A stretch of 64,000 nucleotides of DNA from Candidatus Methanomethylicia archaeon (GTDB lineage: Archaea > Thermoproteota > Methanomethylicia > CALHIW01), in assembly GCA_038845975.1 (NCBI GenBank), contig JAWBQF010000002.1, positions 93,652-157,651 of the forward strand. The letters run 5' to 3'. The notes under the pieces were generated by a model. The model was given only the letters and a program-made list of their open reading frames with translations, ran no database searches and was not told the DNA's origin. The translations under genes were made by a program, and so were the position numbers. Shown here one piece after another: positions 55,817-58,037 of the stretch. Numbering within the stretch: the first letter of the stretch is position 1; the number at the start of each line of letters is the position of its first letter.

Positions 55817-56866
55817 TTGATGGTTAAAGAAGCATACTTCTACAATAAGCTTAAAAACAATATTGTTCAATGTATTATATGTCCAAGAAAATGTATAGTT
55901 AAACCTGGAAGTAGGGGATTCTGTAATACTAGGGAGAATAGGGATGGTAAATTATACTCATTAATTTACGGTAGGGTTTCAGCCATGTCCGTTGATCCTA
56001 TTGAAAAGAAGCCATTATTCCATTTCTGGCCAGGATCACCAACATTCTCAATAAGTAGTGTTGGATGCTCCTTTAAGTGTCCATGGTGTCAAAACTGGCA
56101 TTTAAGCCAACCTGGAAAAATCGAGGATGTATATACGGAATACATTCCACCTGAAGATATTGTTGTAAACGCTAAAAATAGAGGATGCCCATCAATATCA
56201 ATTACATACAATGAACCGATAATATGGCTTGAATACGATTTAGATATAGCTAAAATAGCTAAAGCTGAAGGGTTGAAAATAATTTTTGTAACTAACGGCT
56301 ACATTAGCATTGATGCTTTAAACGAAGTAGCTAAATATATAGATGCTGTAAATGTTGATGTTAAGGGATTTACAGAGGAATTCTACCATAAATATTGCCA
56401 GGCAGATCTTAAAGGAGTGCTTGAAGCAACAGCTGAAATGAAGAATCGTGGAATACATGTAGAAACAACAACACTTCTAATACCGGGATTGAACGACTCT
56501 ACTGAGGAGTTGGAGAATCTGTGTAAATGGCATTACGATACTCTAGGACCTGAAACACCAATACATTTCAGTAGGTTCTTCCCACACTTCAAGTTTACAA
56601 GTCTACTTCCAACACCGATCAAAACACTAGTAAAAGCTAGAGAAATAGCTTTAAATAGGGGATTAAGATATGTTTACGTTGGAAACATACCTGGACATGA
56701 AGGGGAAAACACATACTGCCCAAACTGTAAAAACCCAGTTATAGAGAGAGTAGGATTTGAAATAACTGGATGGAGACTTAATGAAGAAATGCGATGTTTA
56801 AACTGTAATGAGAAAATACCTATAATTGGGAAATACGATAAGAAGTATAAATGGTACTACTATTAA
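55817..56866 (+). CDS. amrS: AmmeMemoRadiSam-system radical SAM enzyme
   Basis: CIICPRKC...GFC, DPIEKKPLFHFWPG, CSFKCPWC (CxxxCxxC), TYNEP, HFSRFFP, YVYVGN, C-terminal CxxC pairs. Confidence 0.93.
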   Translation: MMVKEAYFYNKLKNNIVQCIICPRKCIVKPGSRGFCNTRENRDGKLYSLIYGRVSAMSVDPIEKKPLFHFWPGSPTFSISSVGCSFKCPWCQNWHLSQPGKIEDVYTEYIPPEDIVVNAKNRGCPSISITYNEPIIWLEYDLDIAKIAKAEGLKIIFVTNGYISIDALNEVAKYIDAVNVDVKGFTEEFYHKYCQADLKGVLEATAEMKNRGIHVETTTLLIPGLNDSTEELENLCKWHYDTLGPETPIHFSRFFPHFKFTSLLPTPIKTLVKAREIALNRGLRYVYVGNIPGHEGENTYCPNCKNPVIERVGFEITGWRLNEEMRCLNCNEKIPIIGKYDKKYKWYYY

Positions 56867-56895: not shown

Positions 56896-57142
56896 ATTGA
56901 GGGTATGGCTTAATCTTCTCAATAATCCCCTACTCTCATTAACTATAACTCCGGAGTTTAAATCTATGCTGACCATATCATCATCAATAGAGGAAGCAAT
57001 AAATTCTGTTGAAGCTACTATTACTAGTAAATCTATATTATTTATAGCTTTTCTAAAGAAAATTCTGCAAAAACTTAGCTATTACAATTCTTCCAGCAAC
57101 CATTACTGTATCCTTACCAATTATACTTATAAGACTTGGATC
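56896..57142 (-). pseudogene. 3-isopropylmalate/homoaconitate dehydratase small subunit (leuD/hacB) remnant
   Basis: Minus frame DPSLISIIGKDTVMVAGR-IVIAKFCRIFFRKAINNIDL...DDMVSIDLNSGVIVNESRG matches the LeuD pattern, with NFGCGSSRE deleted. Confidence 0.65.
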
Positions 57143-57179
57143 AAGACTTCAAGCTTGAAGATATTGAATTTAGCATCAA

Positions 57180-57410
57180 GCATATGGTTTGAAGATAGGA
57201 ACAATAGAGAAAAATCACAAGTATATTGGGATAAAGTAATATACAATAATTATATATCATGCATGAGAATAAATGTAATGAAAGTATGCATCAATACTTA
57301 TAAATCAATAGTATACATGCTAACATCGTGAATTGATGAGGGGATAAATCTAAGAACACATAGAACAATACAGAATAAAGGTGATAAACATGCTTAAGTT
57401 AACAAAGCCA
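57180..57410 (+). mobile_element. 3' end of an IS6-family relic (family A)
   Basis: Homologous to 20400-20632; ends cttaagttaacaaagcc. Confidence 0.7.
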
Positions 57411-57420
57411 CTAAATTAGT

Positions 57421-57435
57421 AGATAGATTTAAATA
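57421..57435 (+). promoter_or_regulatory. Putative BRE/TATA promoter for queT-queC
   Basis: Purine-rich agataga followed by TTTAAATA (57428-57435); standard spacing puts the TSS near 57458. Confidence 0.6.
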
Positions 57436-57457
57436 ATTCTAAAATAATGTTAAACCT

Positions 57458-57560
57458 ACCGGCGGGTTGAGCTCCGCCATTACTCCATATGTGGATAGCC
57501 TTCAGATGATAAGGCATCCGAAGGAGAAATCAACCGCTCACCTCAAAATGTGGTGAGGCT
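57458..57560 (+). ncRNA. Structured 5' leader; candidate preQ0/preQ1-type riboswitch
   Basis: GC-rich island with several stems (GGCGG/CCGCC; GGUUGA/UCAACC; UCCA/UGGA; CCUUC-GAUG/CAUC-GAAGG) and an anti-SD CUCACC that can pair with SD GGUGAG; lies directly upstream of queT-queC. Confidence 0.55.
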
Positions 57561-58037
57561 ATGGAGAATATAAAGTCAAAAAACTTAGCTATAACAGCTA
57601 TAATAGCTACACTATACTCAGTGCTAGTATATGTTTTTAGCCCTATTAGCTTTCAAATGGTTCAAATTAGAGTTGCTAATGCATTAATGGGTTTAATTCC
57701 AATTCTAGGAGTTCCAGCTATAATTGGAGTTGTACTAGGTGTTTTCATAGCGAATTTAGTAAGCCCACTAGGATTTATAGATTTACTAAGTGTAGCTCCA
57801 ACCTTTATTGGACTTACAATCATATATAAGCTTAGAAACTATAGCGTACTACTCGGACTAGCAATATACAGTATTATTCTTGGCGCTTGGGTTTCATTTA
57901 TGCTTTGGTATGTTTTCAAAATACCATATGTAGAATGCTTTATCTATGTTACTGTAGGTATAGCTATGGCAACAGTAGGTTTAGGATATCCTGTATATAA
58001 GACTTTTAAAAGAATACTTGGTGGCTGTAAGCTATGA
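57561..58037 (+). CDS. queT: QueT-family (ECF S-component) queuosine-precursor transporter
   Basis: AIIATLY..L.....PISF..VQIRVANAL, G..LG.FIANL.SPLG..D; adjacent to queC. Confidence 0.88.
   Translation: MENIKSKNLAITAIIATLYSVLVYVFSPISFQMVQIRVANALMGLIPILGVPAIIGVVLGVFIANLVSPLGFIDLLSVAPTFIGLTIIYKLRNYSVLLGLAIYSIILGAWVSFMLWYVFKIPYVECFIYVTVGIAMATVGLGYPVYKTFKRILGGCKL

Follow-up and report, generated by a model that had tools for sequence, protein, structure and literature searches.

Why a short GC-rich segment should precede a queT gene in otherwise AT-rich archaeal DNA is the question raised by the queT leader at positions 57458-57560 of the window, by which is meant the whole stretch of 64,000 nucleotides (nt) analysed here from contig JAWBQF010000002.1 of a Candidatus Methanomethylicia archaeon. 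Riboswitches are common in bacteria and scarce in archaea, and to our knowledge the classes predicted in archaea besides the fluoride riboswitch are all shared with bacteria. As of 2021, the fluoride riboswitch was the only archaeal one shown experimentally, according to the accessible text of PMC8241225. The original prediction for this locus read the leader as a translational switch sensing a deazaguanine, either as a variant of the bacterial preQ1-II riboswitch or as a new class. In this study, the new-class version of that prediction was supported by a covarying aptamer, by a consistent context of QueT, YhhQ and QueC genes and by a covarying hairpin over the ribosome-binding site. Segment 57460-57557 is almost certainly a conserved, structured, cis-regulatory RNA, and it is likely, on comparative sequence grounds, to be a riboswitch for a 7-deazaguanine precursor that would act on translation initiation as an OFF switch. 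The element, here called type A, would be a new and undescribed riboswitch class as far as our searches reach.

The basic description of the leader held. The GC fraction is 0.48 at 57450-57549, against 0.23-0.30 across 57150-57449 and 0.31-0.40 on the 3' side, and the positions originally assigned to GGCGGG/UCCGCC (57461-57478), AUUAC (57479-57483), CUCACC (57537-57542), GGUGAG (57552-57557) and the ATG (57561) were exact. The folding energy of 57455-57575 was -39.5 kcal/mol, compared with -28.6 +/- 3.6 kcal/mol for shuffled sequences (z = -3.0), and 1 of 200 shuffles was as low. From the position of a TATA-like box lying 24 nt upstream of the aptamer, transcription would be expected to start at about 57458-57461. 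Each of the 44 distinct loci scored had a TATA-like 8-mer 15-45 nt 5' of the aptamer; this count is consistent with an aptamer at the 5' end of the mRNA and is a weak test, because the score was loose and the DNA is AT-rich.

The leader proved to be shared by other archaea. When 61 related genomes were searched at the DNA level, the leader was present in nine other genomes at 73-80% identity over 57457-57558 (E 4.7e-11 to 8.7e-5), and these nine belong to two other families of the class. A covariance model, R1, was built from nine aligned copies (75 positions, 17 pairs) and detected the element in 10 of 62 genomes of the class, in 3 of 151 genomes of a phylum sample and in 4 of 151 genomes of a second class, one of the latter being marginal. 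Moreover, when R1 was applied to 71 loci matching an exact pattern in a collection of 185,579 species, 14 were recognized at 70-104 bits, and these were exactly the records with archaeal titles (Nezhaarchaeales, Methanomethylicia, Bathyarchaeia, Hecatellales and 'Nitrososphaerota archaeon'), while the 57 loci with bacterial titles gave no match. A comparable pattern scan of metagenomes supplied 41 loci, of which R1 recognized 38 at 72-104 bits. In total, 55 copies representing 34 distinct aptamers were collected, and two assemblies carried two copies each. One further R1 match of 26.9 bits, at L118:1501-1554 (GGCGGACUGAGCUCCGC...AAUCAAC; L numbers are our locus identifiers), was not counted; it lies inside the 3' end of a radical S-adenosylmethionine (SAM) open reading frame (ORF) with no QueT or YhhQ gene downstream, and it is either a chance match or a relic. 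The host gene, in a Bathyarchaeia genome, is of the AmmeMemoRadiSam family, and a member of the same family lies upstream of the leader in the window. In another queT leader, L010:53-132 (17 bits), the 3' half, consisting of GGGAGAAAUCAACC and the hairpin over the Shine-Dalgarno (SD) sequence, is kept, but other sequence stands in place of P1, with a TTTAT box immediately upstream; this may be a decayed or re-promoted copy.

Covariation was counted on the 34 distinct aptamers, in an alignment that was fitted to R1 and partly selected by pattern. In this alignment, 99.0% of paired cells were satisfied, against 86.9 +/- 0.7% in shuffles. Changes on both sides were seen in 9 of 18 pairs and in 71 cells, compared with 5.6 pairs and 18.9 cells in shuffles, none of the 500 shuffles reaching the observed values. 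Slid controls, in which the 3' partners were moved by 1-3 columns, gave 41-54% pairing and at most three pairs changed on both sides. The covarying pairs comprised all four P4 pairs, two P2 pairs, two P3 pairs and the closing pair of P1, which is CG in 26 sequences, AU in 5 and GC in 2 and is C.A in the window. Furthermore, RNAalifold recovered P1-P4 with no structure supplied (20 pairs, 9 compensatory), and an additional pair between alignment columns 42 and 75 (U57492/A57522 in the window) reads C-G in 19 rows, the other 15 having U-A. Wobble pairs also occur, G7.U22 in 34 of 34 sequences and a GU at 43:71 in 7; G.U pairs fit the sense RNA strand only, and a reading of the segment as a DNA palindrome is therefore disfavoured. 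About 40 positions of the aptamer are invariant. The near-lack of covariation in P1 would fit a triplex or another sequence-specific tertiary contact.

The relatives separated the helices drawn originally from the window into those that are conserved and those that are not. The helix GGCGGG/UCCGCC recurs among them as P1. The two hairpins UCCA/UGGA and CCUUC.GAUG/CAUC.GAAGG have no counterpart there; they are alternative pairings of the same bases that can be drawn in the window and appear in its minimum-energy fold, and covariation backs the P2-P3-P4 arm in their place. The proposed pseudoknot UGAGC:GCUCA is confined to the lineage of the window, most relatives having UCUCCC, which leaves just GAG:CUC. 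The long-range complementarity is real, GGUUGA:UCAACC being perfect in the window, and it would enclose the P2-P4 arm in an H-type pseudoknot. Across the alignment, this tail-loop pairing (columns 6-11 with 84-89) is satisfied in 84.7% of cells, with the tail fixed by the search pattern; the outer four pairs are invariant, and the two central pairs are present in 20 and 18 of the 34 sequences, respectively.

The genes downstream connect the element with a single pathway. From blastx of the 3 kb 3' of each copy, the first gene, 22-81 nt 3' of the aptamer, was QueT in 35 loci and YhhQ/Vut_1 in 19, that is, in 54 of 55 loci, the 55th reaching a contig edge; the next gene was QueC in 20 loci and an ATP-binding cassette (ABC) ATPase in 13. 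Pfam confirmed QueT (PF06177), YhhQ/Vut_1 (PF02592) and QueC on the 18 proteins scanned, and the YhhQ type scored 191 bits against the NCBIfam model TIGR00697, 'queuosine precursor transporter' (cut-off 51). QueT and YhhQ have unrelated folds, and their association with the element was not imposed by the searches, because these used RNA features only. In the accessible text of PMC5372724 and PMC11625349, both proteins are linked to the salvage of preQ0 (7-cyano-7-deazaguanine) and preQ1 (7-aminomethyl-7-deazaguanine), and bacterial preQ1 riboswitches are described as controlling queT, yhhQ and queCDEF. Type A thus stands in sense-strand leaders of functionally linked, non-homologous genes, and it combines a covarying aptamer with a platform over the ribosome-binding site, as riboswitches do.

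The same observations bear on the idea that the leader is bound by a protein, such as tRNA-guanine transglycosylase (TGT), QueC or a general RNA-binding protein, which would read P1 and its loop, perhaps as a tRNA mimic, and repress translation. P1 and the loop GAGCUCC are invariant, as is typical of protein recognition sites, and few archaeal riboswitches are known, only that for fluoride having been shown experimentally by 2021 (PMC8241225, accessible text). Against this, numerous unpaired positions of this small element, in the junctions as well as the tail, are invariant, its recurrence before two unrelated transporter families in two classes is the usual signature of a riboswitch, no regulator gene is consistently adjacent, and neither a kink-turn (K-turn) nor a C/D box fits. 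A K-turn or K-loop reading of the loops AGAUG and GAUGA was rejected by eye, the tandem G.A positions being a misfit. In C/D box small RNAs (sRNAs), the C box, RUGAUGA, is found close to the 5' end, and the D box, an invariant CUGA, close to the 3' end. The sole CUGA-like site of type A is at the 5' end, where it belongs to the P1 loop, and its sequence varies among UUGA, CUGA, CAGA, UAGA and CCGA, and no C/D family came near threshold in the Rfam scans of the window and the aptamers; an archaeal C/D box sRNA was therefore also rejected. Protein recognition is thus regarded as unlikely, and a ligand-binding aptamer is preferred.

As to the ligand of this aptamer, the genome of the window, which is 93% complete, contains QueC, a QueD-like gene and a single TGT gene with a 543-amino-acid (aa) frame, and no QueF match was found in its assembly. 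Since QueC and TGT were found and QueF was not, preQ0 is the expected free base and preQ1 is not expected. In the accessible text of PMC5372724, preQ0 is the base inserted by the archaeal TGT for archaeosine. A transporter and QueC under one leader fit end-product control by preQ0, so far as gene order can tell. That the ligand is specifically preQ0 is put at an even chance; CDG (7-carboxy-7-deazaguanine), the archaeosine base and preQ1 are the other candidates within the pathway. A riboswitch for guanine or another purine, or for a nucleoside or nucleotide form, is a further alternative. A 293-aa ORF following queC in the window is possibly glycosylase-like, which is a lead only and hints at the handling of nucleosides or nucleotides; all 54 first genes are QueT or YhhQ, QueC follows in 20 loci, and no purine-metabolism genes are present, which makes a ligand of this kind quite unlikely compared with a 7-deazaguanine precursor.

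How such a precursor might control translation is suggested by the second structured part of the leader. The SD-sequestering hairpin proposed originally was present in 39 of 39 distinct leaders, beginning 1-4 nt 3' of the aptamer, with a purine run (GUGGGAGG, GGUGAGG, GUGGGGGUG or UUGGAGGUG) as its 3' arm. When 26 leaders, one per sequence type, were aligned with plain MAFFT, RNAalifold gave eight pairs, seven of which were changed on both sides. Because the arm in the window ends 2 nt before the ATG and the starts of YhhQ genes abut GGGAGG, either or both of the SD and the start codon are covered by the hairpin. At four YhhQ loci (L002:1590-1605, L006:1590-1600, L007:1113-1125 and L008:1590-1602), the sole in-frame start is a TTG or GTG located 0-1 nt after GGGAGG, and the first residues xxGEGxR are conserved; either these genes use the 5' portion of the purine run as their SD or they initiate in an unusual way.

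In the proposed mechanism, the 76-nt aptamer would bind a free 7-deazaguanine precursor, most likely preQ0. Binding would lock the aptamer, including P2 and the conserved tail, and the C/U-rich anti-SD strand would then pair with the purine-rich ribosome-binding site, so that the transporter and the last biosynthetic enzyme would be translated less. In the ligand-free state, the G-rich 3' strand of P2 and the tail would capture the C/U-rich strand and free the ribosome-binding site, and the switch would thus be a competition among three strands, namely the P2 3' strand, the anti-SD strand and the ribosome-binding site. The P2 3' strand GGGAG is SD-like, and the C/U-rich strand is a possible partner for it too; in nine full leaders RNAalifold chose GGGAGA:UCUCCC over P2. 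We infer which ligand is bound, that binding turns translation off, that the strands re-pair in its absence and that the tail may contact P1 through a pseudoknot or triplex.

Several observations weigh against a ligand-controlled switch of this design. In constrained folds of 11 leaders, where the aptamer fold lay 0-4.2 kcal/mol over the minimum-energy fold, the ribosome-binding-site hairpin formed with or without P2 in most leaders; the ligand-free pairing of the window amounts to only about 3 bp, and a clear two-state switch was not seen in these folds. P1 lacks covariation except in its closing pair, and the invariance of GAGCUCCGCC and GAAAUCAACC was imposed by the search patterns in 52 copies, that of GAGCUCCGCC, AC and GAAAUCAACC being independently established in only about 10 copies, which came from the similarity search or from R1. 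The distribution is patchy: 37 of the 62 genomes of the class have QueT, and at least 27 of these 37 are without type A; with filters off, R1 found one weak variant only (L170, 11.5 bits) at the 27 other queT loci of the class. The second queT gene of the window's own genome (contig C4:107049-107489, L175; relative L174) is without a type A leader. In addition, bacterial QueT is described as a preQ1 transporter in the accessible text of PMC11625349. Finally, no RNA run is among the sequencing runs that contain the stretch; these are 17 DNA runs from nine studies, all labelled hot-springs metagenome except two 'organism A' runs.

The folding results also suit a constitutive structured 5' untranslated region (UTR), which would stabilize the mRNA or act as an RNA thermometer with no ligand. 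Hosts from hot-spring metagenomes and a ribosome-binding-site hairpin that forms in most folds, whatever the state of the aptamer, are in keeping with such a role. A thermometer or stabilizer has no need of a 76-nt aptamer with about 40 invariant positions, and it leaves the tie to one pathway across two transporter families unexplained, so that a ligand-free leader is very unlikely and a riboswitch is the better account.

The relation to known riboswitches was examined with Rfam. The whole window had no match at gathering thresholds, and a search of the window and L003 aptamers with all 4227 families at E<=10 returned no preQ1 family, including preQ1-I (RF00522). The chance-level matches obtained (CRISPR-DR40, JPX, L31 leader, RAGATH-28 and ALIL) fell far under threshold and were rejected; the CRISPR-DR40-like match at 57427-57455 (-) scored 23 bits against a gathering threshold of 42 (E 0.24), in an AT-rich promoter with no repeat array. 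The option of a preQ1-II variant was not borne out, given that RF01054 had no match at E<=10 in 57380-57620 or 57458-57540 and that the SD lies outside the aptamer. In the whole genome, RF01054 gave four weak matches elsewhere, at 18.9 bits or less, and none at the leader (gathering threshold 47 bits), and RF02680 (preQ1-III) gave no match at E<=10 across the genome or at the leader (gathering threshold 63 bits). Moreover, no archaeal preQ0 or preQ1 riboswitch was found reported in open-access full text.

According to the accessible text of PMC11625349, there are three preQ1 classes, all bacterial, with class II in Bacillota and class III in Ruminococcaceae and metagenomes. Type A shares with classes II and III its location in the 5' UTR of queT or another queuosine-precursor gene (54 of 55 loci), and an HLout topology may be common to it and these two classes. 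Class II, as described in PMC11625349, also controls queT (COG4708), and its stem likewise leads through a pyrimidine-A-C junction, given as AUUAC in the original prediction, to a hairpin and an A-rich stretch before the 3' strand; there, the whole SD forms the pseudoknot helix P3 under the pocket, whereas in type A it lies in a separate downstream hairpin. Class III has, in the same source, an aptamer of about 100 nt including the platform and a presumed translational OFF control, and its ribosome-binding-site helix is likewise outside the pocket. Type A differs from it in helices and conserved nucleotides, in the position of the anti-SD, which is in the P4 loop there and 3' of the aptamer here, in its archaeal hosts and in its expected ligand, preQ0 rather than preQ1. 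With preQ1-I, the likeness is a topological conjecture only, consisting of a small stem whose loop pairs with the tail after an A-rich linker, and type A is twice as large, with an extra three-helix arm. That archaea acquired or inherited a divergent preQ1-II, preQ1-III or preQ1-I riboswitch is in accordance with the queT/yhhQ association, with the sequence of stem, UUAC-like junction, hairpin, A-rich segment and tail, which is compatible with an HLout pseudoknot, and with the complementarity of tail and loop in the window. The missing preQ1 model matches, the SD in its separate hairpin, unlike class II (PMC11625349, accessible text), and the frequencies of the two central pseudoknot pairs given above make such a descent highly improbable, and a class distinct from the preQ1 riboswitches is favoured.

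The queT genes of these archaea also revealed a second leader, type B, which was recognized in queT upstream regions and has the form GGCGGGUGAGUGG-(1-10 nt)-CC(U)CCACCCGUUCCGCC, followed by a linker rich in A, then AAACCCCGG and finally an SD hairpin. Exact matches to its core occurred in 35 of 401 phylum genomes, the reversed control giving 0. QueT was the next gene in 29 of the 29 loci examined, with QueC following in 17. The stem-closing pair covaries (AU 14, UA 9), and Rfam gave no match. Type B resembles type A in P1 (GGCGG/CCGCC), in the GGCGGGU-GAG start, in the UNA...AAA linker and in a C-rich tail followed by an SD hairpin, and it differs in having a hairpin within the P1 loop rather than 3' of P1, in lacking the P2-P4 arm and in being more widespread. 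Two divergent type A leaders before queT, L039:1501-1584 (38.9 bits with R1) and L170:2060-2130 (-), have a longer P1 loop and the tails AAACCCCGCU and AAAUUCUCCC, respectively, and look like intermediates between the two types. L039 has the arm of type A and a tail, AAACCCC, resembling that of type B, its loop (GGGU...) and tail (ACCC) having changed together; the two loci are the sole natural test of the loop-tail pairing.

These comparisons suggest that types A and B have a common core, and type B is probably a sister riboswitch class. Its presence before queT strengthens the case for a regulatory RNA role of queT leaders in these archaea. The core topology of preQ1-I could also be common to the core of type A and the type B motif. 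In a wider and more tentative reading, held at somewhat less than an even chance, type A would be at once the first archaea-specific riboswitch class, the first preQ0-tuned natural aptamer and a member of one family with type B; the ligand-binding core of the family would consist of the invariant GGCGG/CCGCC stem, the A-rich linker and the C-rich tail, with only the site of the accessory hairpin differing.

Table 1. Features of the queT leader and its surroundings (window coordinates unless a locus is named).
Feature	Position	Strand	Remarks
TATA-like box TTTAAATA	57428-57435	+	read directly
Aptamer, type A, 76 nt	57460-57535	+	R1 match of 85.3 bits at 57460-57536; covariation; RNAalifold
P1	57461-66/57473-78	+	GGCGGG/UCCGCC, loop UUGAGC
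Junction	57479-82	+	AUUA
P2	57483-86/57523-26	+	CUCC/GGAG
Internal loop	57487-92/57520-22	+	AUAUGU/GAA
P3	57493-96/57516-19	+	GGAU/AUCC
P4	57498-502/57511-15	+	GCCUU/AAGGC, loop CAGAUGAU
Tail	57527-35	+	AAAUCAACC
Expression-platform hairpin	57537-57557	+	CUCACC/GGUGAG; 3' arm is SD-like GGUGAGG (57552-58)
queT, 158 aa	57561-58037	+	S-component type transporter, putative regulated gene; Pfam PF06177, 1.3e-22, 81 bits (cut-off 33.7)
queC, 232 aa	58034-58732	+	7-cyano-7-deazaguanine (preQ0) synthase; Pfam PF06508, 1.1e-44
Cys-rich ORF, 293 aa	58782-59663	+	50 nt 3' of queC, same strand
AmmeMemoRadiSam radical-SAM enzyme gene	55817-56866		TIGR04337; about 600 nt 5' of the riboswitch candidate
TTG-start ORF, 144 aa	56897-57331	+	between radical-SAM gene and leader; low-complexity, AT-driven composition; no Pfam family
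Type B examples	L183:1406-1481; L165:1400-1476; L167:1959-2035 (-); L194-L205, others		GGCGGGUGAGUGG..CCUCCCACCCGUUCCGCC form

The surroundings of the leader are listed in Table 1. The identification of queT and queC in the original prediction agreed with the Pfam results, and QueC scored 137 bits against NCBIfam TIGR00364, under the equivalog cut-off of 150. The start of queC overlaps the stop of queT by 4 nt, and the two genes are therefore probably co-transcribed. The 293-aa ORF may be the third gene of this unit. At E<=0.001 it matched no Pfam family, a weaker match to DUF5767 (E 0.083) being the only one, and it had no PDB relative; its look-alikes by a protein language model included OGG_N/HhH-GPD glycosylase clusters (score 0.91, a lead only). 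It is retained 3' of queC in three distinct close relatives (L146, L144 and L156) at 74% identity, and one may speculate that its product frees the deazaguanine base from a nucleoside or nucleotide. Upstream, the 144-aa ORF is probably not a gene, judging from its composition, and the intergenic region would then measure about 690 nt. A tRNA scan of 57000-58000 found no genes. The second queT, a paralogue elsewhere in the genome, has an AT-rich upstream region with neither type A nor type B motif, and its product shares 58% identity with the QueT of L040, which is of the Bathyarchaeia type.

In conclusion, if the proposed reading is true, archaea have evolved metabolite-sensing RNAs of their own, and type A would be the fourth architecture that senses 7-deazaguanines, or the fifth architecture when type B is included. 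The compact and thermostable element would offer a ligand-controlled translation switch for archaeal genetics, and it would give a handle on how uncultured hot-spring Thermoproteota control the supply and salvage of archaeosine precursors.

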